A stretch of 64,000 nucleotides of DNA from Escherichia phage Bp7, in the sequence record NC_019500.1; one strand, written 5' to 3'. Below the pieces are notes generated by a model. The model was not told where the DNA came from. It saw nothing but the letters and a program-made list of their open reading frames with translations, and made no database searches. Positions 7,509 through 35,860 of this stretch are shown here, piece after piece; the stretch's first letter is position 1; each line of letters opens with the position of its first letter. The position numbers and the translations under genes were made by a program.

Positions 7509-9593
7509 ATGACCGAACAATTAAATGAAGTGTTTGAGTCCGAAGGCACACTGCCTACAGTAAACTTGAACCCAAAACTTAAAGTACCCCAGATTTGGAA
7601 GATTGGTGACGCAGAATCCCAATTAGTGGCGCGTATGGTATCCTACGCTTCTGAAGGTGATGCTATTAAACAGGTTAAGATGGGTGATAAATATGCCCAC
7701 GTTATCCTTATGAGCCTTTCAGCTAAAGGTTCGCCTGCCGAACTTAAAGGTGGCCTAGGCCCTACTCCCGTAGATGCGATTAATACTATTTTTGATGTGG
7801 TTTATGACCAAGTTAAAAAGCTTCGTATGGATGCCGTGATGTTCCGTTTCCCTACTAAGAAAATGAAAGGTCAAGGCCCTATCGTTCAACGGATTATCCA
7901 ACGTTTGGTAGCACAGAAAACAGGTGGACGTTTTAAAGTAGTTCCGGCTATGTACCAATTTACCGGTAAACATACTTATATCCTAGTAGTTCGTAAACAG
8001 GCTGATATCGAAGATATCAAAGGTATGCCAGGAATTAATGCCGAATTATACACTAAGGTAGATTCTGATGTCGGTGAAGTTTATATTTCTAAAAAAGAAG
8101 GCGTGCAGGTTACTAAAGAAACTGCTATTGCCGGCAGTATTGCTAAAGTTGAAGAACGTCGCACTGATAAAATGGTTATAACCAAGACTAAGATTTCTCG
8201 TCGTGCCATTGCAGCAAGTCAATCGTTAGAATCTTATCGTAATGAAAGTGAACTGTTTAAGAAATATGAAGCAAATGCCGTAGATTTTAATAAACCTGCA
8301 ACAGCTCCATTAATCCCTGAGGCCCAGGAAATGGTTACTAATAACAATTCTCCCGCGGCTAAAAATAAGGTTGCTAATATAGTAGCTGAAGGTACTGCTG
8401 AAGAATTGCATTATGATTATAAAATGTTTCCTCTTCACGGTATAGGTGAAATCCAAGAGAAAATTAAAGATAAAATTCTTGCGGCCATCAAAAACGAACC
8501 TTTGACATCTGTTAAAGCTCTAGAAAAATATGCCTCTGCTATTAATACCGTTTTCGAAGAATACAAAGGTGAATGGCTGGCCCGGCATAACAAAACTCGT
8601 AAAGGCCAACCTGACGACCTCTGGAATGAATTGACCGATGCGAAGTGGAAAGCCGCCAAGACCAAGTTCATTAAAAAACGTGTATATAGTTTTGCCGGTG
8701 TAGGTGGCGGTATTATGGTCGATATTACTATTGCTCGTGAGGGCTCTAAATATACCCCATCACAAAAGCGCGGCATCAGAGAATATTGTGGCTCAGGATA
8801 TACAGACATAAATAATCTTCTTTTAGGACGCTATAACCCTCAGAACTATGAGGTTATGGGCGAAAAAGATATCGAATCTGCAGTTAATAATTTGGATTCT
8901 GCTTTTGAAAATGGCGACCGTATACCAGAAGGCATCACAGTTTATCGTGCACAGAGTATGACTGCTCCTATATACGAAGCACTAGTTAAAAATAAAGTGT
9001 TCTATTTCAGAAATTTTGTATCCACTTCATTGACTCCTATCATTTTTGGACGTTTTGGTGTTACACACGCCGGTATCGGTCTTTTAGAACCGGAAGTTCG
9101 CGATGAATTGACAGTCGATAAAAATGAAGAAGGAATAACTATTAATCCTAATGAAATAAGAGCATATAAAGAAAATCCTGATTATGTTAAAGTTCAAATA
9201 GGATGGGCTATTGATGGGGCTCATAAAGTTAATGTCGTATATCCAGGAAATCTCGGAATAGAAACTGAAGCCGAAGTTATTCTACCGCGTGGATTAATGG
9301 TCAAAGTTAATAAAATAACAGATGCTTCTAATAATGATGGAACAACATCTAGTAATACAAAACTCATCCAAGCTGAAGTTATGACAACAGATGAGCTTCA
9401 AGAATCTGTGGTATATGATGGTGACGTACTAATGGAAACCGGCGAGTTGGTCGTATATAAAGATGACTTCGATACTTCCGAAAGCCCTGTATCTTTTGAT
9501 TCATTTGTTAAATCTACACGGTTTGATGTATTGCCTCTTTTGGCTTCATGCATAGACCTCTATGACATCCCAGAAAAATTCATCCAAGGGTAA
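7509..9593 (+). CDS. Alt-like ADP-ribosyltransferase, divergent paralog 1
   Basis: 694 aa; ART R/STS/ExE elements (QKRGIREYCGSGY, FYFRNFVSTS, ETEAEVILPRGL); N-terminal LNE motif consistent with prohead protease processing. Confidence 0.85.
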   Translation: MTEQLNEVFESEGTLPTVNLNPKLKVPQIWKIGDAESQLVARMVSYASEGDAIKQVKMGDKYAHVILMSLSAKGSPAELKGGLGPTPVDAINTIFDVVYDQVKKLRMDAVMFRFPTKKMKGQGPIVQRIIQRLVAQKTGGRFKVVPAMYQFTGKHTYILVVRKQADIEDIKGMPGINAELYTKVDSDVGEVYISKKEGVQVTKETAIAGSIAKVEERRTDKMVITKTKISRRAIAASQSLESYRNESELFKKYEANAVDFNKPATAPLIPEAQEMVTNNNSPAAKNKVANIVAEGTAEELHYDYKMFPLHGIGEIQEKIKDKILAAIKNEPLTSVKALEKYASAINTVFEEYKGEWLARHNKTRKGQPDDLWNELTDAKWKAAKTKFIKKRVYSFAGVGGGIMVDITIAREGSKYTPSQKRGIREYCGSGYTDINNLLLGRYNPQNYEVMGEKDIESAVNNLDSAFENGDRIPEGITVYRAQSMTAPIYEALVKNKVFYFRNFVSTSLTPIIFGRFGVTHAGIGLLEPEVRDELTVDKNEEGITINPNEIRAYKENPDYVKVQIGWAIDGAHKVNVVYPGNLGIETEAEVILPRGLMVKVNKITDASNNDGTTSSNTKLIQAEVMTTDELQESVVYDGDVLMETGELVVYKDDFDTSESPVSFDSFVKSTRFDVLPLLASCIDLYDIPEKFIQG

Positions 9594-11648
9594 ATGATGG
9601 AAAATTTAAACGAAGTTTTTGATAGCGATTCCGCTAAAAACTATCCAGTAATAAATCTTAAACCAGGTTCCGGTATCCCACAGATTTTCTCTATTAAAGC
9701 ACCGGGTAATGATAACCTGGTTGCTCGTATGGTATCTTATGCGTCTCAAGGAGACGCTATTAAAATGGTTAAGCCGGGCGACAAATATGTCCACGTTATT
9801 CTAATGAGTTTGTCAAGCAAGGGTGCTCCGGCTGAACTCAAAGGTGGTCTTGGTTCTGACCCACTCGGTACGCTGAATACCATTTTTGATACTGTATACG
9901 AACAAGTAAACAAACTTAAAATGGATGCGGTTTTATTCCGTTTCCCTACCAAGAAAATGAAAGGTAAGGGCCCTACTGTTCAGCGTGTATTAGCTCGTTT
10001 GGCTATGGCTCGTACTGGTGGTAAGTTTAAAGTTGTTGATGCCATGTACCAATTCACTGGAAAACATACCTATGTTCTTTTAGTACGTCGTGGCACTAAT
10101 ATTGAAGATATCAAGGGTATGCCTGAAATTGATGCCGAACTTTATACTAAGGTTGAGTCCAAAGTTGGCGAAGTTTATGTTTCTAAGGAAACCGGCCAGT
10201 CCGTAAGTAAGGCCGAAGCTGTCTCGGCAAGTATAGCTAAGGTTGAAGAGAAACGTACTGATAAGGCCGTCATTACCAAGACTAAGATTTCTCGTCGTGC
10301 TATTGCTATGTCGCAATCCTTAGAATCGTCACGATTTGAAACTCCTATGTTTAAGAAATTTGATTCTAATGCTGCTGAATTGAATAAACCGGCTACGGCT
10401 CCTTTAATGTCAGAAGCAAATGAAATAAAGGTTATTTCTAATTCTTTCTTGGCTTTAGAAAATACCATTAGTGCTAATACTGGTGGTATGTCGTTTAAAG
10501 ACAACCTTCTTATTCCAGAAGATAAAATGGAAGAAATTAATACCGACATAAAAATGAGAGCTTTTGAGAAATTACATGGATTAAATGTGACTTCAGTAAA
10601 AGCCCTAGAAAATTATGCTTCAGTGGTTGATGACGTCATCGAAGAATATAAAGGTCCTTGGCTTCAAAAGCTAATGGCTCAACATTCACACCTAGGTTAT
10701 CACGAAGCAGTCGAGTTGGCTGAAAATTCTTGGAATGCTATAAAGACCAAAATTATTCAACGTGAGCTGCGTGTTTACGCTCTTACCGCCGGTTGGCAAT
10801 TGCATTCTATTATAGAAAATAAAGACGCGTCTCGTTATACTCCTGCCCAGAAACGTGGTATTCGTGAATATGTTGGCTCCGGTTACGAAGATATGAATAA
10901 TGTTCTTTTAGGTCTCCATGACCCGAATGTAAGAAGCAGTATTCTGACTAATGAAGACATAGAAAAAGCTATCAATAACTTAGATTCTGCTTTTGAAAAT
11001 GGCGAACGTCTACCACCAGGTATTACTCTTTATCGTTCCCAACGAATGATTCCTGATATTTACTTGGCTATGATTAGCAATAAAGTATTCTATTTCAGAA
11101 ACTTTGTTTCAACTGCGATATATCCGAATATTTTTGGTACATGGATGACTGATTCTGGTGTTGGTCTTTTGCCTGACGAAAAACGTCGTGATGTTGCATT
11201 AGACAAATCGGATGAAGGTTTAGTATATTCGAATAAAGATACTTTAGTAGGTATTGGTTGGGCCTTTACCGGTACAGATAAGGTAAATGTCGTTTTACCT
11301 GGTGGAGACTTGGCTCCTTCTAACGAAATGGAAGTAATTCTTCCTAGGGGTTTGATGGTCAAAATCAATAAAATTACAGATGCTTCATACAATAACGGAA
11401 CTACTCGTTCTAACAATAAGTTCGTTCAAGCCGAAGTAATGACTGCAGACGAACTTAATGAAGCCGTGGTGTACGATGGTGATGCTCTGATGGAAACAGG
11501 CGAACTAGTTGTCTATAAAGAGGGTAATGAGCTTTCTTTTGATTCTTTTGTTTCTAATGAGAAGAAAAAGAAATCAGACAGAGGTCTTGGCTTGTTAGCT
11601 TCTTGTATAGATATCGACGCTCTCCAGTATAAATTTGTACAAGGGTAG
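9594..11648 (+). CDS. alt: Alt ADP-ribosyltransferase (packaged, modifies host RNA polymerase), paralog 2
   Basis: 684 aa; QKRGIREYVGSGY, FYFRNFVSTA, NEMEVILPRGL, C-terminal LLASCIDI...KFVQG shared with paralog 1. Confidence 0.88.
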   Translation: MMENLNEVFDSDSAKNYPVINLKPGSGIPQIFSIKAPGNDNLVARMVSYASQGDAIKMVKPGDKYVHVILMSLSSKGAPAELKGGLGSDPLGTLNTIFDTVYEQVNKLKMDAVLFRFPTKKMKGKGPTVQRVLARLAMARTGGKFKVVDAMYQFTGKHTYVLLVRRGTNIEDIKGMPEIDAELYTKVESKVGEVYVSKETGQSVSKAEAVSASIAKVEEKRTDKAVITKTKISRRAIAMSQSLESSRFETPMFKKFDSNAAELNKPATAPLMSEANEIKVISNSFLALENTISANTGGMSFKDNLLIPEDKMEEINTDIKMRAFEKLHGLNVTSVKALENYASVVDDVIEEYKGPWLQKLMAQHSHLGYHEAVELAENSWNAIKTKIIQRELRVYALTAGWQLHSIIENKDASRYTPAQKRGIREYVGSGYEDMNNVLLGLHDPNVRSSILTNEDIEKAINNLDSAFENGERLPPGITLYRSQRMIPDIYLAMISNKVFYFRNFVSTAIYPNIFGTWMTDSGVGLLPDEKRRDVALDKSDEGLVYSNKDTLVGIGWAFTGTDKVNVVLPGGDLAPSNEMEVILPRGLMVKINKITDASYNNGTTRSNNKFVQAEVMTADELNEAVVYDGDALMETGELVVYKEGNELSFDSFVSNEKKKKSDRGLGLLASCIDIDALQYKFVQG

Positions 11649-20077: not shown

Positions 20078-20108
20078 CCGGCCCTTCCGAAAGGTTGGGC
20101 CTTTTTTG
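20078..20108 (+). terminator. GC-rich hairpin followed by TTTTTTG
   Basis: ccggcccttccgaaaggttgggcc then T-run. Confidence 0.5.
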
Positions 20109-20109
20109 T

Positions 20110-20337
20110 TTAGAAATCTTCCTCTTCCTCGTCGTCCATCGACTCCAATTCAGCTCTCTTACCAGCCAATGCATCACGCACGCTAATATCATCCGAATCA
20201 CGAAGTTCGGCTTCCTTACTACGAGTTTTGTAATACTTTTCCAATTCCTTCAGACCATCCATAGTCTGACAAGAACCAATTTTAGCCATGAAGCTTTCAA
20301 TAGATGCTTCCTGAATAACTTCTTTAAAGGTTTTCAT
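20110..20337 (-). CDS. UvsW.1-like small acidic protein
   Basis: 75 aa with acidic tail DDEEEEDF; position relative to uvsW. Confidence 0.55.
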   Translation of the reverse strand: MKTFKEVIQEASIESFMAKIGSCQTMDGLKELEKYYKTRSKEAELRDSDDISVRDALAGKRAELESMDDEEEEDF

Positions 20338-21116
20338 AATATTTCCTCGAAAAATTTGGTAACCATTTTACCGTAATGCACATTAGGATAACCGGCTTTA
20401 ATGGCTTCTTTTGTAAATTTACCAACTTTAAGCTTTCCTGTATTTATCCAAAGCTCTTTAAGCTCATCATACATTAACCAGTGTGGATATTTCTTAGCCA
20501 AAGTAGCTTGCCAATTTTTAGAATGGTCCTCAGACCTAAACGATTTCTTTACACCTTTATTGGCTTTGCCAGCTTTTGAACACGTTTCATAATCTCCGGC
20601 TTTAATAGGTGTAAATCCTTTCATTGCTTTAGACCTTTTGGCTATGGTCTCTTTGGATTGCTTGGAGCCTTTATTTTTGGTCCAAGCCTTTTCTAAAGCT
20701 TTTAATTTGGCTTCTGTTAATCCAACTTTAGCCATAGCTTTTCGGTGTATTTCTCTTCGTTCATCAGTCCATTCATAAGAACCGTTTGTATTACCAATCA
20801 TGGCTTCGCTTATTAATCTAGAAGCATTTTCTTTTAAAATGGAAATAGACCTAGAGCTTATCTCATTTAATCTTTTGCCACATGTCATACCAAATGCGGC
20901 ACGCCATAATTTTCCACCTTGAGCTTTAGCCAAGATTATATGGCCCAAAATATGTTCCCTAATAGTCAATGCAACTAAATTGTTAGGGTCATCGGAACCA
21001 CCTATCGACTTAGGAATAATATGATGAATTTCGATTTTACAGGGCGCAGTAGCTTTGGTCCATCCTCTGGACCTAGCATTCTCTATTAAATCATCGTAAA
21101 TTTTCTGATAATTCAA
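20334..21116 (-). CDS. HNH homing endonuclease (free-standing, Mob-like)
   Basis: HNH motif IEIHHIIPKSIGGSDDPNNLVALTIREH; apparent TTG start overlapping uvsW stop and TGA stop overlapping uvsW.1 ATG. Confidence 0.8.
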   Translation of the reverse strand: MNYQKIYDDLIENARSRGWTKATAPCKIEIHHIIPKSIGGSDDPNNLVALTIREHILGHIILAKAQGGKLWRAAFGMTCGKRLNEISSRSISILKENASRLISEAMIGNTNGSYEWTDERREIHRKAMAKVGLTEAKLKALEKAWTKNKGSKQSKETIAKRSKAMKGFTPIKAGDYETCSKAGKANKGVKKSFRSEDHSKNWQATLAKKYPHWLMYDELKELWINTGKLKVGKFTKEAIKAGYPNVHYGKMVTKFFEEIL

Positions 21117-22616
21117 AGCTGCACCTCTTTCATAACATAATTAAATTTCTCGTCGGCGTATCGTTGTATACGTTCCAATCCATGTTTCAGGCAATAATTT
21201 AAATGAACATATTTCTTTTTAGAATCTTTAGATTTAGGGCGGACTCCCATATCATCCACGAGGTCCCAGACTTGGGCCACTTGTTTGCTATCGTGCTTAC
21301 GTAGAACACGCCCAATTGTTTGCAGAACAATGATTTTAGATTTTACGCCGTGAGCAAATACAACGTGGTGAAGGTTCTTAACGGAAATACCAGTAGAGAA
21401 CACACCATAACTTGCCACAACAATAATACCCTTACCATTTTCCGCCATTACTTTCAGAGCATTACGCGTTTCGGTATTAACTTCACCTGATACGTAATAA
21501 ACTTCTTTATGTTGCTCTTTAACCATTTCAAAAAGAGTTTTACCGTGTTCGATGTTTTTAAACATCAGGAATACGTTCTCTTCTTTCTTAGCGAGTTTAA
21601 CAGCTAAATTAGCAACCCATTTATTACGACGAGTAGCCTTAGTAATGACCTTGATTTCTGATTGGTAATCTTTACCTTTCATCTTAACAGTGAATTCGTC
21701 TGGGTATCGAAGGAAAATACTGTTGATTTTAAGGTCGGTAACCTGTCCTTCTTCCATTAACTGGGAAGTGGATACCGGCTTAAACACATCACCAAACAAA
21801 CCCATATATTGCATTAAATTAGCTTTACCATCTTTTAAAGAACCAGACAAACCGAATTTAAACATACAGTTGGTTAGGCCTTCGATGATAGTAGAAATAG
21901 ATTTACCTGTAGCCAAATGGCATTCGTCGTTCATAAACATACCGAACTGAGCAAACCATTCTTTAGGTTGCTTGATAGCAGTTTGATAAGTTGAAACGTA
22001 AATCATTGCATCAGAATCACGAGCAGTACCTGAACGAATACCAAGCATTGCTGCTTTAGGGAACAATCGATAATCGATGAAGTCATTAATCATCTGGTCG
22101 ACAAGTGCAGTAGTAGGAACCAGAATAAGGATTTTACCTTCATAGTTCTCAACGTAATATCGACTCAGGAGCGCCTGGATTAATGATTTACCTGCGGATG
22201 TAGGTAAATTCAGAATTGCACGACGTTTTGTCAGGCCGTTGTATACGGCTTCATTCTGATACCAATGAGGCTCAATCTTGGTAGACCCTGAATAAATTTC
22301 TTGAGAAGCTACCCATGAATCAAAATCTTCACGAGAAATATCTTCCTGTTCAAGAATACGCGGGTCAATCCACAGAGAATATTCAAATTGTTCAGCGAAC
22401 TTTTTAATTTGAGGGACAAGTCCATAAGGGCAAGTTTACGGCAGTTACGTAATCTAGAAGAAGAAGACTTCCATCCCATTGCCCATAACGAAATTTAGGG
22501 TTGAATTTATATCCATCGGCTTCAAAGCTAAAATAGTCTCTGAGTTCGTAGAATGTGGATTCATCACACTCAATACGAACATGACTAAAATTATCGAAAT
22601 GTACTTGAATTTGCAT
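21113..22616 (-). CDS. uvsW: UvsW DNA/RNA helicase with apparent +1 frameshift near 22428-22430
   Basis: N-terminal 55 aa in one frame, rest (Walker A PTSAGKS, DECH, QTIGRVLR) in adjacent frame; switch at a GGG run. Confidence 0.8.
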
Positions 22617-22630
22617 AAGTAATTCTCAGT

Positions 22631-22652
22631 TATAAATATAGTTATATTTATA
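22631..22652. promoter_or_regulatory. divergent late promoters (TATAAATA each strand) for uvsW and the inh/hoc side
   Basis: gtTATAAATAtagttatatttatac read directly. Confidence 0.45.
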
Positions 22653-24224: not shown

Positions 24225-24517
24225 GCATTAAAGTACAAAATTCCTGTTTACAAGGACTCTAGTCTATGTTAAGATGGGTTTACCAACTCAACGAGAGAAT
24301 TGTTATGGATAAGGTTAAAGTACATTTTTTACACGAATCCGGGTTGAATTTTATAGAAATTGCTAAAAAAATGGGCGGGACCGCTAAGGATATGGCCAAA
24401 GCATGGGTTGATGTAGAACAAGCCTAGAGCCAAATTTAAAGCGAAAGAAAAGGTTGTTTATCGTAAAAGATTGAACAACAAGGTTCGGCGCAAAGCGCGT
24501 TCTGGTTCAAAGTAATA

Positions 24518-25663: not shown

Positions 25664-26944
25664 TTATTTTTCTAAAGGCGGTAATTTTACGCCGAGATAA
25701 GAACTCAATTGACTTTGATTAGCCATTTTGTCCATATCAGAACCATCAATAATGCGGGCTTCTTTATCGTCCTTAGCGACGGTATAAGGGTTTGCAGTCA
25801 ATGCATAACGAGCAAGCAATGCTACTGTAGGTTGTAAGCTTTCCGGGTCAACAATAACCTTAAATTCACCAACTGAAGTATCACCTTCTTCGTCAACCAC
25901 ATTCAAACCTTCCGTATAAGGCGCATAATATAAAGATGCGACCGTCTGTCCTTCACCCATCTGGGCATTTACACCAACAATAACATAATCACATGGACTA
26001 TTCATATCAGCATAAAGTGGTAGGCCATTCTTTAATATACCATAAGCCAATTCGTCCTGGTCTTCCTTTTTCTCAACCCAACCAGAGGCGGCGAGAATAG
26101 CAGCACAACGAGAACTAGCTACTGCATAAGTCCCGGCAAAAGAAGTCTGTCGTTGGACGGCAGAGTTCATCTCACACATATAATAATATAATGTGCGAGC
26201 ACGGTCCTGGGCATTATCGTAGCGAGGGTTGGTAAGGTCTAATACACCCTTTTCAGAAACACCCTGGACTTTAAAACGAGAGCTCACGGTAATTAATGAC
26301 TGTAATACATCCTTATTAATTTCTTCTGCCATTTGAATGCCTAGCAGATTTTCAACGAAATTAGGAGCATTAAACCCGTTAGATTCTAGGTCTTGGGCTA
26401 ATTCGACTGTCAATGAAGTTTTCAGTTTACGTGATTTAACTTCAGATTGCCATTTGTCGATGCGGAATCCGGTTTCAGCAATTTCAGGATGGCCTTGTTC
26501 AAATTTAGAAGTAATAGCAGCATCCGACACCATACGGATATGGCCGGCTGCCACTGCTTCAGAAATAACTTCGCTGAGGTTGGTTTCTGTGGTTCCGGCG
26601 AAAGGAGATGCTTCTAGAACTTTAAACACTACGCTTTCAAACTGGAACATATCACCGACCGCATAAGCTGTAGATGAATCAGTAAATTCTGGAATATTTT
26701 CACGTTCCGTCATACCAATCTGGCCCGCAAATGTTGCTCCACCAAGATAAGTCATTTTGTCGTCAGGGTTCAGTACACGTACCCCATACAGAGCAGCAAC
26801 CGGTTGATTTGTTTTTTGTTCAGCAACTAGGGCTTTAAAGATTCGTTTATTAGTTGCTTGGGTGTATGAAAGAAGAGCAGGACGGCCAACCGAGCTGGCA
26901 GCCGTCAATGTGGATTCTTTAATTAGGTCTACAATCTTAGACAT
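25664..26944 (-). CDS. gp24-like head vertex protein, divergent paralog
   Basis: 426 aa; shares LQSLITVS, VELAQDLESNGF, LARYALTANPYTVAKDDKEARIIDGSDMDKMA with adjacent gp24 at roughly half identity. Confidence 0.85.
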   Translation of the reverse strand: MSKIVDLIKESTLTAASSVGRPALLSYTQATNKRIFKALVAEQKTNQPVAALYGVRVLNPDDKMTYLGGATFAGQIGMTERENIPEFTDSSTAYAVGDMFQFESVVFKVLEASPFAGTTETNLSEVISEAVAAGHIRMVSDAAITSKFEQGHPEIAETGFRIDKWQSEVKSRKLKTSLTVELAQDLESNGFNAPNFVENLLGIQMAEEINKDVLQSLITVSSRFKVQGVSEKGVLDLTNPRYDNAQDRARTLYYYMCEMNSAVQRQTSFAGTYAVASSRCAAILAASGWVEKKEDQDELAYGILKNGLPLYADMNSPCDYVIVGVNAQMGEGQTVASLYYAPYTEGLNVVDEEGDTSVGEFKVIVDPESLQPTVALLARYALTANPYTVAKDDKEARIIDGSDMDKMANQSQLSSYLGVKLPPLEK

Positions 26945-28227
26945 TAATCAGCCTCGTAAATAATTGCCGGAAGTTTAACGCCAACCAGATAAGACATATT
27001 GCTCTGTCCAGCCATTAAATCCATATTGGTTGCATCGATAACACGAGCTTCTTTATCGTCTTTAGCCACGGTGTACGGGTTAGCTGATAGTGCATAACGA
27101 ACCATCAGAGAAATAGAAGGTTGTAATGAATCCGGGTCAACAATAACCTTATAAGCACCGACGTGTTCTTGGTCATCTAAATCTAAGCCTTCGGTATAGG
27201 GAGCGTAGAAAATAGAACCGACAACTTCATTACCGCCGTAATTCTCTTTAACACCAACGGTAACATAATCTAATGGACTGTTAACGTCACAAAACAGAGG
27301 CAGACCATTCAACAAATATCCGTATGCAGTTTCCGGAAGCCAATTATTATCTTCGGGTTTATGTTTTAACCAGCCAGAACCTGCAAGCATTGCAGCCACA
27401 CGACTTGAAGCCACAACAAACGTGCCAGAATAAGAAGTAGTTTTCTGGATTTCAGAATTCATCTCACAAACGAGTTCATAAAGTTTACGTGCAGATTCAG
27501 GAGCACTGTCATAAGACAAATCGATGATGCCGTTATCAGATACACCAGTAACTTTATAACGTTTGGATACGGTTATTAGAGATTGCAGAACGTCTTTATT
27601 AATTTCATCTGCCATTACTGTAGCCAAGAGGTCTTCTAAGAACGCCGGCGCGTCAAAGCCATTTGATTCCATATCCTGCGCTAATTCTACAGTCAAAGCC
27701 GTCTTCAATTTACGGGTCTTAACCGGAGCATTCCATTTATTAACCTGGAATACGGCATCAGAGATTTCTACATCACTCGCTTCAAATTTAGTGGTATGGG
27801 CAGCATCAGGAACCAGACGACATGTTAATGACACTAAACCTTCTTGAAGAGCATCAGCCAATTCTGTGGCGCTAGTGGACGCGAGTGGGCTTGCTTTAAG
27901 AGCCTTATAAACCACATTCTGATACTTGAAATATTCACCCTGAGCAATCGCCTGGGCCTTATCTGTGAGTTCTGGGATAGTTTCACGGTCTTTAGAACCA
28001 ACTTCACCACCATAAGAGGCACCTGTCTGGAAACTAAATTCATTATCAGGGGTAAGATATTTGACACCATACAGTGCAGCAATAGGCTGGCTAGTACGTT
28101 GTTCGGCGATAATATCACGGTAAATCAATTTGGTTGTAGCACGGGTCAAAGCAACAAGATTAGGGCGACCCAATGAGTTGCTGGAAGTAGTTGTTGACTC
28201 GCGCAGTAATTCGTTAATCTTTGCCAT
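26944..28227 (-). CDS. 24: head vertex protein gp24
   Basis: 427 aa; MAKINELLRESTTT... matches remembered T4 gp24. Confidence 0.9.
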   Translation of the reverse strand: MAKINELLRESTTTSSNSLGRPNLVALTRATTKLIYRDIIAEQRTSQPIAALYGVKYLTPDNEFSFQTGASYGGEVGSKDRETIPELTDKAQAIAQGEYFKYQNVVYKALKASPLASTSATELADALQEGLVSLTCRLVPDAAHTTKFEASDVEISDAVFQVNKWNAPVKTRKLKTALTVELAQDMESNGFDAPAFLEDLLATVMADEINKDVLQSLITVSKRYKVTGVSDNGIIDLSYDSAPESARKLYELVCEMNSEIQKTTSYSGTFVVASSRVAAMLAGSGWLKHKPEDNNWLPETAYGYLLNGLPLFCDVNSPLDYVTVGVKENYGGNEVVGSIFYAPYTEGLDLDDQEHVGAYKVIVDPDSLQPSISLMVRYALSANPYTVAKDDKEARVIDATNMDLMAGQSNMSYLVGVKLPAIIYEAD

Positions 28228-32380: not shown

Positions 32381-33953
32381 TAGAAATCCTCTTCTTCTTC
32401 ATCTGGGTTTTGGAAACGAGCCTCTTTAGACTCTTCTTCAATTTGCTTAGCTTCTTGATTAATTTCTTCGTCGGTCATTTGGAGGAAATCTTTCATAGCC
32501 GTTTGATGTGAAATGTACTTACCAATAAATGGTTCAGCCATCGTTAGCATATTGATTCTGCGTTCCATGATTTCAGCATCTTTCATTTCACTGAAATAGC
32601 TATCACGGTTAAACGTAACTTTAATATTATTTATTTCCTTTTCCCACTCATCTTCTGTAATAATCTTTTTAAGAATGAGGTTTGTTTTTAACGGGTCTAG
32701 GAAAATTTCTTCAAATTTGTTTTGTAGTTGACGAATCCATTTAGAGAATTTTAATTCGTCACGAGTGATTGCTGTACCGGCATCAAACATAACACCAGAA
32801 TTAGACTCGCTAGGGATACGTGATTCAGGAACACGCAACGCACGGTAAAGTGCTGTGCGGAAATAAAGAACGTCATCCATATCACTCATACCAGTAGCAC
32901 CTGGCATTGTATCAACTTCTGTTACCGCTTTACCATCACGACGTTGCAACCAATAGTCTTCAGTCATGGACATATTGTGTTGTTGGTTTTTAATTTTACC
33001 TGTCGAAGCATCATACACCACACGGTTTTTCATCGTGTTCATGATATGTTGCATTTGTGCTGCAGCCTTACGTGAAGGCATATTACCTGTATCGATATAA
33101 AACACACGACGGTCAGGAGCACGTGTAATACGGTAGATGACCATTGCGTCTTCCATCAATTTAAGCTGGTTTGCAGGCTTAATAGCACGTTGCAAATAGC
33201 CAATGATGTTTTTACCACAACAATCTAATAATCCAGAATGAGCATAAACCACTGCAGCACGAGGAATTTTAACTTTAGTCCCGGCTGAATAAATGCGTCC
33301 ATCTGCGCAATAGCTTTCATGACCTGTGTCGTAAACGAAAAACTCGCGATATCCGTCTACAACTTTAACGCCATCTTCCATACGTGTAACGATTTCACGA
33401 ATATATTGGACTTGGCGTGGGTCTAAGCGACGAAGCTCTTGTACGCCATCTTTCATTTTTTTAGGGTTTATAATTTTATGAAAGAAAATTCTTGAGTCTA
33501 CATACCAGCGTTGGAAATGGTCAGTGCCTTTACGTTGGAAATTTAAAAGGTTTAAAACTTCACTGAATTCGGCCAAGATTTTATCTTTAATTGCTTGACT
33601 AAATTCTGTCCCGTCTAAATTCAATGCAACTACTTCTTTATCATCTCATAGACAATAGCGTCAGACACAATTTCCTGTACGGCGTTGTCGACTTCATAGT
33701 TGTTCATTAAATTACGGTAGGTATCAATAAGTTCCCTGGTATTTTTAACTTCAGGCTCATTACTACCAAACATCTGTTGCATAAGAGCATTATAAGGAAT
33801 ATTTTGCTCTTGTGTCTCAATTTCGCGAGCGCCATCATCAAGCTTAGGTGCGGTGACAGACTCTAAATTGTTATTAATTTGTTGTTTGAATTCTTTTTCG
33901 TCTTCATTAGCCCATGGCTTAAGAAAACTTAATATTGTATTAAAGTTTGCCAT
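32380..33953 (-). CDS. 20: portal vertex protein with apparent single-base deletion near 33642-33647
   Basis: N-terminal 107 aa and C-terminal 414 aa lie in adjacent frames and together align to T4 gp20 (about 524 aa). Confidence 0.88.
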
Positions 33954-34010: not shown

Positions 34011-34592
34011 TCATTCATTTTCATGTTTGTGATAACGTGTTATAGCCGAACGAGTTGATTCAACACCACAGATAGGGCAAATCATCCTTGGCTGATTAAT
34101 CTTTTTGCCTTTAGCCGGATGTTCTTTACCAAACATCGGATTACCTTCACCAGACATAGCTTTGGCTTGGTCTGGTCGCTTACGTCCTTTTAGAGCTTTA
34201 GAATGTTCAGGCCTCTTTTTACCTAACCTACAATCTCTTTGTAGCTGTTTGGCATGTTCACTCATTGGAATCCCTTTACGAGACATTCCAAAGAACCCGT
34301 CAGGCTGAGCTAATGACATATTTATATAGTTTTTAGATTTAACTACATTATACTTTATTTGAAGCTCTTTCTCAGCTATACGAGCTTCTTTATCGGTTTC
34401 AAATAAAGATAAAATTCTGGTTTTGAAAAGGTGCGGATTTTCTTTACGTTCTAGATTCCAAATCTTTTTATATGCTTGGGATAATACAGAACCATTATAT
34501 CCTTCTTTGAGAATCCTTTCAACGTATGTTGAGCCAATATAACGACGGGGTAGTTTAGACCCCGTGTATATGGTTAAGTAAGTACAATACAT
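34011..34592 (-). CDS. GIY-YIG (Seg-like) homing endonuclease
   Basis: N-terminal YLTIYTGSKLPRRYIGST, basic C-terminal DNA-binding region; intergenic between 20 and 19. Confidence 0.6.
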   Translation of the reverse strand: MYCTYLTIYTGSKLPRRYIGSTYVERILKEGYNGSVLSQAYKKIWNLERKENPHLFKTRILSLFETDKEARIAEKELQIKYNVVKSKNYINMSLAQPDGFFGMSRKGIPMSEHAKQLQRDCRLGKKRPEHSKALKGRKRPDQAKAMSGEGNPMFGKEHPAKGKKINQPRMICPICGVESTRSAITRYHKHENE

Positions 34593-34659: not shown

Positions 34660-35151
34660 TTATTCCCACCAGTCAATAGCAAATGTGCTTTCAAATGTTT
34701 CTACCTCGTTATTCGAGTCCCAGTCCATCTGGACTTCACCAACGTTAGTAGGCCATAAGCCGTAAATTGTAACTTCTTTGGTCACAGTCTTGCCGTCACG
34801 ATGGAACTGGCGAACTACTGCTTGTTTCTTATATTCTGCAGGTGCTGCACCGGTAATTTCATTGGTCATACCGTGACAGAGATTCTGCCAATCGACAATT
34901 GCTTGACGGGTGTCATGTGCATCATCGTTATAAATGGTAATTGTCCAATCATCAAACGTACGGTCACCAGCTACGTTAATTTTACGGTTCATGTAGCCAA
35001 CCGGTACTTTTTCTACAATGCCTGCCGGCATAGGGGCTGCTTTACATTTAAAGCTAAAGTTTTTACCGAGAAATGGAATTTCCACTTCGAAAAGGTTAGG
35101 GCGTGCAAAGTCACCTGACTCGAAGGCCCTAGTGATATCGGTCAACTCCAT
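34660..35151 (-). CDS. 19: tail tube protein
   Basis: 163 aa; matches remembered T4 gp19 (RAFESGDFARPNLF). Confidence 0.95.
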   Translation of the reverse strand: MELTDITRAFESGDFARPNLFEVEIPFLGKNFSFKCKAAPMPAGIVEKVPVGYMNRKINVAGDRTFDDWTITIYNDDAHDTRQAIVDWQNLCHGMTNEITGAAPAEYKKQAVVRQFHRDGKTVTKEVTIYGLWPTNVGEVQMDWDSNNEVETFESTFAIDWWE

Positions 35152-35188: not shown

Positions 35189-35860
35189 TCATGATAGTTT
35201 TCCATTTGGTTGTTTTGATTCAATCATATTTATAAGAGTTTTTAAGCTCATCCCACAGCCATCTGATTTGGAAAGATTTTCTTCCCACGGAATAATTTGC
35301 AAGTTACAAATATGGCCTATATGTTCTGCGGGTATTTTATTATCATAACCAAATTTCTTAGATATTATATGGTCTAATTGATAAGCACCTTTGACTCCGC
35401 ACTTGCCTATTTTAGTAAAATTCTTCATTTTACTTATTTCATTTCTATATTTATACTGATGACGCTTGACATCCATACAATATTTATGATATTTTTTCTT
35501 ATCAATCCAGTGTTCTTTAGATTTGAGACCTTTACCTGTTCTATTTTTGGAAATTTTAGGCCCTTTGGTTTTACGGATTTTTATGCCTTCATCAGAATTC
35601 CAATATTCTTTTCTTGTTTCTGAATAGACTTCCCAGCGATGTTCTTTACAGAACTTAGAATTTGTTTCATTAAGACGTCCTTTTGTTACAGTATAATAAG
35701 TGCCACATTTATCACATTTACATGTAACAGCAATTTTTCCAGGACAATCTTCTAATTTTATTAAATGAGAGCTTCCACTTTTAACTTGATATCCGAGATT
35801 TTTAAAAGCAGAAACATTGCGATTCGTTATAGGTATTTCAAATAGAGTATTAGTAATCAT
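35189..35860 (-). CDS. HNH homing endonuclease with N-terminal Cys cluster
   Basis: QLDHIISKKFGYDNKIPAEHIGHICNLQIIPWEENLSKS; late-promoter-like TATAAATA at 35866-35873. Confidence 0.75.
   Translation of the reverse strand: MITNTLFEIPITNRNVSAFKNLGYQVKSGSSHLIKLEDCPGKIAVTCKCDKCGTYYTVTKGRLNETNSKFCKEHRWEVYSETRKEYWNSDEGIKIRKTKGPKISKNRTGKGLKSKEHWIDKKKYHKYCMDVKRHQYKYRNEISKMKNFTKIGKCGVKGAYQLDHIISKKFGYDNKIPAEHIGHICNLQIIPWEENLSKSDGCGMSLKTLINMIESKQPNGKLS

Follow-up and report, generated by a model that had tools for sequence, protein, structure and literature searches.

A putative Mob-type HNH homing endonuclease gene at the uvsW/uvsW.1 junction of Escherichia phage Bp7 and the diverged uvsW tract that accompanies it

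In phage T4, the helicase gene uvsW and the small gene uvsW.1 are contiguous. In the 64,000-nucleotide (nt) stretch of Escherichia phage Bp7 analyzed here (sequence record NC_019500.1, hereafter the window), an open reading frame (ORF) of 260 amino acids (aa) separates the two, which raises the question of whether this gene is a mobile element lodged in the junction or a long-standing resident of it. A previous reading of the sequence alone, without database searches (the sequence-only reading), had placed an HNH homing endonuclease ORF between uvsW and uvsW.1 at 20334-21116, leaving its strand unstated, and a single ORF is indeed found there, on the minus strand. From comparison of sequences, we consider with good confidence that this ORF encodes a free-standing HNH homing endonuclease of the Mob type and forms a promoter-less cassette within the late uvsW operon. 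The endonuclease is an ordinary member of a well-known class, at a putative homing site that is new to the literature searched, in which no paper describing an endonuclease at the uvsW/uvsW.1 junction was found.

The distribution of the gene among relatives constitutes the first line of evidence. The window phage belongs to the genus Dhakavirus, among the JS98-like coliphages of the T4 type, and its best match, UGJNEcP3, is 96.9% identical over the region. Among the approximately 91 Dhakavirus-level records (at least 80% identical to the region), the same gene occurs only in UGJNEcP3 and UGJNEcP4, with 97.9% nt identity. In JS98, JS10, WG01, AnYang, LHE83, vB_EcoM_005 and 04086, uvsW ends in ...YVMKQVDL and its TGA overlaps the ATG of uvsW.1 (ATGA), nothing lies between the two genes and the region is about 780 nt shorter. 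This direct overlap holds for most of the Dhakavirus set, and it is what the sequence-only reading had predicted when it proposed beforehand a comparison of the junction with insert-free relatives. In the genus Gaprivervirus, 30 rows were listed, some phages being counted twice through their GenBank and RefSeq records; two of them contain this gene, six contain a second type of endonuclease at the same place (see below), and 22 are empty and about 780 nt shorter. At least 80% of the region is covered by only four of the 670 matching records, two from each genus. Moreover, a 96% identical protein is encoded in the same context on about 20 metagenomic contigs. T4 itself has no insert between uvsW and uvsW.1, as had been claimed, and its RefSeq record keeps both as one 1764-nt ORF; this comparison also drew on Nolan et al. 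(2006). Thus, in both genera the gene is sporadically present or absent at one conserved site among close relatives.

The second line of evidence lies in the 3’ end of uvsW. The insertion had been described as scarless, a description that does not hold, given that a diverged tract has taken the place of the final ~215 nt of uvsW (about 21113..21328). Over this tail, the window is 71–74% identical in nt sequence to insert-free Dhakavirus, vs. 96–98% over the next 600 nt. Non-synonymous divergence (dN) amounts to 0.15–0.17 and synonymous divergence (dS) is saturated in the tail, as compared with a dN of 0.003 and a dS of 0.08 in upstream uvsW. About 50 insert-specific substitutions are concentrated in the final 215 nt of the window uvsW and almost none are found at 216–1226 nt, while about 25 differences in the 72 codons of the tract change the amino acid. 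Expressed per 100 nt, the mismatches go from 0–2 to 10, 34 and 16/65 at the junction, and fall back to background in uvsW.1. The last ~200–215 nt of uvsW are substitution-dense in all four endonuclease-bearing Dhakavirus genomes, and these changes are absent from seven insert-free relatives. An equivalent pattern is observed in Gaprivervirus, where P479, YenP8 and SP18 are 73–90% identical to the insert-free VR20 over the last ~200–250 nt of uvsW and 94–100% identical upstream.

As far as the sequences tell, the diverged tract is of the kind that homing with co-conversion classically leaves. Co-conversion of flanking sequences is a known feature of homing (Edgell et al. 2010), and nuclease genes are generally associated with exchange boundaries (Barth et al. 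2023). In the metagenomic carrier L022, the boundary of the tract is located ~50 nt further upstream than in the window, a shift which argues for more than one recombination event. A distant blastn search for a donor of the 214-nt uvsW tract returned nothing above 80.6% identity outside UGJNEcP3 and UGJNEcP4, and the uvsW tails of Gaprivervirus carriers are 70–72% identical to that of the window. Since no tail closer than this was found, the combination of the endonuclease and the uvsW tail linked to it behaves like an old haplotype, apart from the insert-free pool.

The sister lineages reveal how such a cassette could fit into the junction without breaking either neighbor. In Gaprivervirus carriers, as well as in carriers of the second endonuclease, the endonuclease ORF closes with ~6 codons identical to those that end uvsW in insert-free relatives (the endonuclease ends in ...IKQVEI in P479 and in ...MKQVDL in PSD2002), and uvsW itself ends in carriers of both kinds with a new, similar tail (VKHVEL or MKEVQI). 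These last codons being the former uvsW tail, the element sits ~20 nt inside the old end of uvsW, with a replacement tail upstream, which is again at odds with a scarless insertion. The 5’ side of the cassette apparently supplies the replacement uvsW tail, the stop codon and a Shine–Dalgarno site, and on its 3’ side the old uvsW tail appears to be re-used as the C-terminus of the endonuclease together with the Shine–Dalgarno site and ATG of uvsW.1. In the window, the 3’ repeat of the uvsW tail has decayed (...KFFEEIL), yet GAGGA is kept 6 nt before the uvsW.1 ATG; its equivalent in insert-free relatives is AGGTGG, within the uvsW tail.

The protein itself agrees with this assignment. It matches the Pfam HNH family (PF01844) over residues 28–50 with 26.7 bits against a cut-off of 21.4 (6e-6) and PHROG 655, annotated as homing endonuclease, over residues 1–257 (3e-47). 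The HNH motif, EIHHIIPKSIGGSDDPNNLVALTIREH, holds H31/H32, N46 and H55, which, together with H59, are invariant or nearly so in an alignment of 26 homologues. In the AlphaFold (AF2) model, the mean predicted local distance difference test score (pLDDT) is 76.5 and exceeds 90 for residues 1–70 and 210–250, and a beta-beta-alpha fold is predicted at residues 28–66 with a pLDDT around 90. According to Pfam and the model, residues ~1–100 constitute the HNH nuclease domain, followed by a low-confidence linker with weak NUMOD3-like repeats (residues ~100–200) and a helical domain in residues ~200–260 that is probably DNA-binding. GenBank labels the orthologues as “homing endonuclease” or “putative Mob-like HNH homing endonuclease”, and tblastn found no paralogues of the 260-aa endonuclease elsewhere in the window. 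The ratio dN/dS against three relatives is 0.035, 0.045 and 0.084, which indicates that the endonuclease is maintained by purifying selection. Taken with the sporadic distribution and the foreign uvsW tract, the HNH and PHROG 655 matches favor the free-standing homing endonuclease that the sequence-only reading had proposed.

The embedding of the gene in the operon is equally tight. Both overlaps claimed earlier, namely the TTG start with the uvsW stop (TTGA) and the endonuclease TGA with the uvsW.1 ATG (ATGA at 20337..20334), are read directly in the sequence (Table 1). The segment from the preceding in-frame stop to the HNH motif contains no ATG, GTG or second TTG and, thus, TTG is the sole possible canonical start 5’ of the catalytic motif. 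The family alignment opens at this codon, and its first three residues, M1, N2 and Y3, are nearly invariant. At the corresponding position of the orthologues, TTG is used in five and ATG in six of the 11 loci, always as an (A/T)TGA overlap, and TTG occurs in three of three loci of the second endonuclease type at this junction. Tight coupling and a weak start codon had been called typical of free-standing homing endonucleases, a generalization of which only the first half stands: in T4, 5 of the 12 free-standing endonuclease genes overlap the upstream gene, but all of them start with AUG except mobA, which starts with GUG (Edgell et al. 2010). RNA structure masking the ribosome-binding site or the start was considered and rejected, as the folding energy from -60 to +40 (-10.7 kcal/mol, z = 0.13) does not differ from that of shuffled sequences.

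On the minus strand, the order is the late promoter motif TATAAATA, uvsW, the 260-aa ORF, uvsW.1 and a hairpin facing uvsY.-2. No other copy of TATAAATA exists on this strand between 19000 and 23500, and an own promoter for the endonuclease was discarded, no such motif lying on its strand between the uvsW promoter and uvsW.1. Sigma-70-like matches did not exceed those in shuffled sequences (11 found vs. 9.7 expected), and terminator-like matches were also at shuffle level. With only one late promoter motif, the endonuclease looks like a promoter-less cassette in a uvsW–endonuclease–uvsW.1 transcript. The hairpin, which was missed by a simple terminator scan, is probably a conserved bidirectional terminator; such a terminator was predicted 3’ of uvsW.1 in T4 and in each of five other genomes (Nolan et al. 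2006). Separate uvsW and uvsW.1 genes stand on either side of the endonuclease, outside any intron, and no group I intron or other RNA family was detected in the region by Rfam at E values up to 1, barring a chance S15 match. The uvsW.1 product is 100% identical to its UGJNEcP3 counterpart.

Table 1. Positions of the endonuclease gene and of the features around it in the window.
Feature	Position	Strand	Basis
Mob-like HNH homing endonuclease gene (putative), 260 aa, TTG start, TGA stop	20334..21116	minus	ORF list
Diverged uvsW 3’ end, ~215 nt, last 72 UvsW residues	about 21113..21328	minus	identity drop vs. insert-free relatives
TTGA overlap: endonuclease TTG (21116..21114) and uvsW TGA (21115..21113)	21113..21116	minus	sequence
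Shine–Dalgarno GAGGT, 6 nt 5’ of TTG, within final uvsW codons	21123..21127	minus	sequence
Shine–Dalgarno GAGGA for uvsW.1, 6 nt before ATG, within final endonuclease codons	20344..20348	minus	sequence
uvsW.1, 75 aa; ATG (20337..20335) overlaps endonuclease TGA (20336..20334) as ATGA	20110..20337	minus	Pfam UvsW-1 (PF11637) 2.5e-24
uvsW helicase gene	21113..22616	minus	Pfam UvsW_N 1.6e-29, Helicase_C, ResIII
T4-type late promoter motif TATAAATA 5’ of uvsW	22645..22652	minus	motif search
GC-rich hairpin and T-run between convergent uvsW.1 and uvsY.-2	20080..20107	no strand	read from sequence

These features suggest how the element would be propagated. Transcription would start from the uvsW late promoter, and the endonuclease would be translated at low level from its TTG by means of the GAGGT site and/or by ribosomes terminating on uvsW. 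In a mixed infection, the enzyme would recognize the uvsW 3’ end or the uvsW/uvsW.1 junction of an insert-free relative; in carriers, the insert divides the presumed target sequence, which is also heavily substituted there. A nick or cut would then be introduced in the insert-free allele, as for MobA, MobE and I-HmuI, and recombination-dependent repair would copy the endonuclease gene, along with a variable stretch of donor uvsW, into the recipient.

Several points weigh against this interpretation. Firstly, the tract could have originated by ordinary recombination with an unsampled lineage instead of endonuclease-induced repair, the nearest tail outside UGJNEcP3 and UGJNEcP4 being 80.6% identical. 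Secondly, the window and UGJNEcP3 share the tract boundary, so that a single ancestral event is enough within this clade. Thirdly, if the uvsW frameshift present in the window (see below) is real, the coupling of the endonuclease to uvsW translation would be lost. Finally, the relation between the divergence of the endonuclease and that of UvsW also fits a long-resident gene that was repeatedly lost.

This last point arises from the fidelity of the gene to its site. All ten orthologous loci compared (43–99% aa identity), from Dhakavirus, Gaprivervirus, a Yersinia phage, Acinetobacter Lazarusvirus, Aeromonas phage AsFcp_2 and metagenomic T4-like phages, lie directly 3’ of uvsW with a 4-nt overlap and, in most of them, uvsW.1 comes next after the endonuclease. 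The same uvsW overlap is seen in a truncated metagenomic locus (P0012, 220 aa). Since every full-length homologue examined, at 43–96% identity, directly follows uvsW, the lineage is old and faithful to its site. The identity of the endonuclease is 76% in P479, 53% in Acinetobacter and 43% in Aeromonas, vs. 86%, 57% and 56%, respectively, for UvsW; as it roughly tracks or lags UvsW, the association with the site is ancient, and not the result of a recent jump across genera.

The constancy of this position in E. coli, Yersinia, Acinetobacter and Aeromonas phages and metagenomes, the parallel fall in identity and the strong purifying selection on the endonuclease would all be expected of an ancient, vertically inherited resident or domesticated nuclease that was lost many times and is kept for the benefit of the phage, not for current homing. 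That benefit could be, for example, the exclusion of co-infecting relatives or a role in UvsW-dependent recombination. We regard this explanation as unlikely, although it is the strongest of the alternatives. Carriers make up only about 2 of 91 records at the Dhakavirus level and 2 of the 30 Gaprivervirus rows listed, other members have a different endonuclease at this very site, and an abrupt foreign tract, with boundaries that differ, is seen in uvsW in two genera. Moreover, in the comparison with contig L020, the endonuclease is 78.7% identical at the nt level, above the 72.8% of the uvsW core, and the exclusion of co-infecting relatives is mechanistically equal to homing. The sequence-only reading had itself named an ancestral, non-mobile resident as the finding that would speak against it. 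In this respect, the lineage does prove old at the locus, but its sporadic presence and the flanking tracts argue for mobility.

The different endonuclease at the same site is a second HNH enzyme of 231 aa, likewise with a TTG start, which is found at this junction in PSD2002, UP19 and the six listed Gaprivervirus rows mentioned above, including SP18. It shares with the window endonuclease just the HNH head (55% identity over 65 residues), beyond which it contains two NUMOD3 motifs (5.6e-12) and an I-TevI-like DNA-binding end. In Shigella phage SP18 (NC_014595; L029 811-1502), the gene is annotated as SP18_gp197 from an internal ATG, leaving a 92-nt “intergenic” gap. This annotation loses the first His-His of the HNH motif, while the ORF runs on to a TTG overlapping the uvsW TGA.

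The SP18 copy, annotated as if truncated, could be taken to favor the possibility that the window gene is an inactive relic, which is kept since its deletion would disturb the expression of uvsW.1 by removing its ribosome-binding site and coupling. Decay is common among phage endonuclease genes, and the weak TTG start suggests low expression. Nevertheless, the SP18 truncation is an annotation artefact, the ORF is full-length in the ten orthologous loci compared, dN/dS remains at 0.035–0.084 across the whole ORF and the catalytic residues are all invariant, which makes a relic very improbable. A chance ORF or an assembly artefact, which the indel errors elsewhere in the window might have suggested, is already refuted by the PHROG family match (3e-47), the 97.9% identical copy in two independent phage records and the 96% identical protein encoded in the same surroundings on about 20 contigs from metagenomes.

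The homing cassette proposed here can be extended to a broader and more tentative idea, which we think has a minor chance of being correct. The uvsW 3’ end could be a long-standing battleground between the old Mob-like lineage, which extends from Aeromonas and Acinetobacter phages to coliphages, and the second endonuclease, the two contesting the same few nucleotides and each carrying its own UvsW C-terminal module between phages, in such a way that endonucleases drive the modular evolution of a recombination helicase, with TTG as a selected throttle on expression. UvsW itself plausibly takes part in the repair on which homing draws.

Comparison with known systems places the window endonuclease close to the Mob proteins of T4. 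The closest T4 protein is MobD of T4/RB3 (28.7% identity over 99% of the length, E value of 1e-21), which is also free-standing and shares the MNY.KIY..LI N-terminus, the N-terminal HNH domain and a C-terminal, presumed DNA-binding region. MobD differs in its site, between nrdC.11 and mobD.1, presumably in its target, and in its AUG start, and its activity and target are marked “ND” in Edgell et al. (2010). MobE is likewise a free-standing HNH endonuclease whose promoter-less cassette is driven by the promoters of the upstream gene, located between the functionally linked nrdA and nrdB. Its start overlaps the nrdA stop (UAAUGA), as UUGA does at uvsW, suggesting translational coupling in both cases. 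By contrast, the sequence likeness to MobE is restricted to the N-terminal HNH region (Aeh1-type mobE matches ~ residues 1–97), MobE has an internal terminator, whereas none was found here, and the window endonuclease starts with TTG. MobA and MobE nick their targets and are over-inherited, MobE nicking its neighboring gene, with co-conversion (Edgell et al. 2010).

T4 SegE is also free-standing, has uvsW as its homing locus and shows co-conversion of flanks (Edgell et al. 2010). However, it is a GIY-YIG enzyme encoded on the 5’ side of uvsW, between inh and uvsW, and cuts the hoc.1-uvsW/5’ uvsW region. In the window, segE is absent from the inh/uvsW position, where 55 nt separate the two genes. 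The second endonuclease of PSD2002, UP19, SP18 and their relatives resembles the window element in its insertion point, TTG overlap and diverged uvsW tail, but is unrelated past the HNH head, and its last 6 codons are the original uvsW tail. The occupation of one junction by two endonucleases may be likened to the shared sites at which SegH and Hef have replaced mobC and mobE, as indicated by a title cited in Edgell et al. (2010). I-HmuI and I-HmuII of Bacillus phages, in which an HNH nuclease is joined to an extended DNA-binding region, constitute the model for nick-initiated homing (Edgell et al. 2010); they are intron-encoded, unlike the window gene, and gave no significant sequence or fold match to the 260-aa endonuclease.

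Altogether, the uvsW 3’ end at the uvsW/uvsW.1 junction is an addition to the putative homing sites of T4-like phages, since T4 targets only the opposite end of uvsW, by SegE. The locus also offers a clean natural example of three phenomena, i.e., an endonuclease-linked tract of the co-conversion type replicated in two genera, two endonucleases with a common nuclease head and different DNA-binding tails at one contested site, and a cassette that preserves the translational coupling of both neighbors. For specialists there is little surprise in such an element, although the comparative footprint is unusually clear. In practical terms, endonucleases starting with TTG are easily mis-annotated, as in SP18, and Dhakavirus and Gaprivervirus are phage-therapy candidates; marker exclusion by such genes bears on how cocktails and crosses are designed.

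The uvsW gene of the window is broken at ~22430-22470, in codons ~50–70, by clustered substitutions and a net gain of 7 nt (~22430-22448). The frame is lost after codon 70, so that the N-terminus is left as a 70-aa ORF (22404..22616) and the rest of the gene continues in a different frame. The inserted CGTAACTG is similar to CGTAAACT next to it. This patch is absent from all fetched loci and from IMG/VR, and UvsW residues 61–498 are 100% identical to those of UGJNEcP3. A link between the patch and SegE-type cleavage was dropped as unsupported. The essential portal gene 20 (32383..33953, minus strand) contains a 1-nt deletion at ~33646 with respect to UGJNEcP3, outside any homopolymer, which splits the protein into residues 1–103 and 104–524 in different frames, both 99–100% identical to UGJNEcP3; this deletion suggests indel errors in the window. 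Both frameshifts are probably local sequence or assembly errors, and a portal gene truly broken in this way would not allow a viable phage. The uvsW lesion, if real, would be very recent.

Other variable positions were observed in the window. Several 1-nt indels with respect to UGJNEcP3 at ~24240-24430 disrupt a small hypothetical ORF located between hoc and the gene for RNA ligase; this ORF aligns in frame for residues 1–40 alone. The tail-tube gene (34660..35151) and the portal gene are separated by an unrelated HNH homing endonuclease ORF of 193 aa (34011..34592, minus strand; PHROG 314, 1e-29; PHROG 10820, 2e-28), which is missing in UGJNEcP3, where the distance between the two genes is 57 nt. 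A 223-aa ORF between the tail sheath and tail tube genes (35189-35860, minus strand; PHROG 5104, 6e-66) shares 32% identity with its positional counterpart in UGJNEcP3, while the flanking genes are 98–100% identical, and looks like a variable cassette. Tandem gp24/major-head-like paralogues of 426 and 427 aa, both in PHROG 138, are encoded at 25664-26944 and 26944-28227 on the minus strand; UGJNEcP3 has one such gene there, and the window copy nearer gene 23 is just 68% identical to it. On the plus strand, two Alt-like ADP-ribosyltransferase genes (7509-11645) correspond to three in UGJNEcP3, with 47–70% identity, forming a variable paralogue array. Finally, two metagenomic Dhakavirus-like contigs (L022, 4261-4959, and L023, 1596-2264) contain, between uvsY.-2 and uvsY, an extra ORF of 232 and 222 aa, respectively, with no Pfam match; neither the window nor JS98 has this ORF, which may be another mobile cassette.

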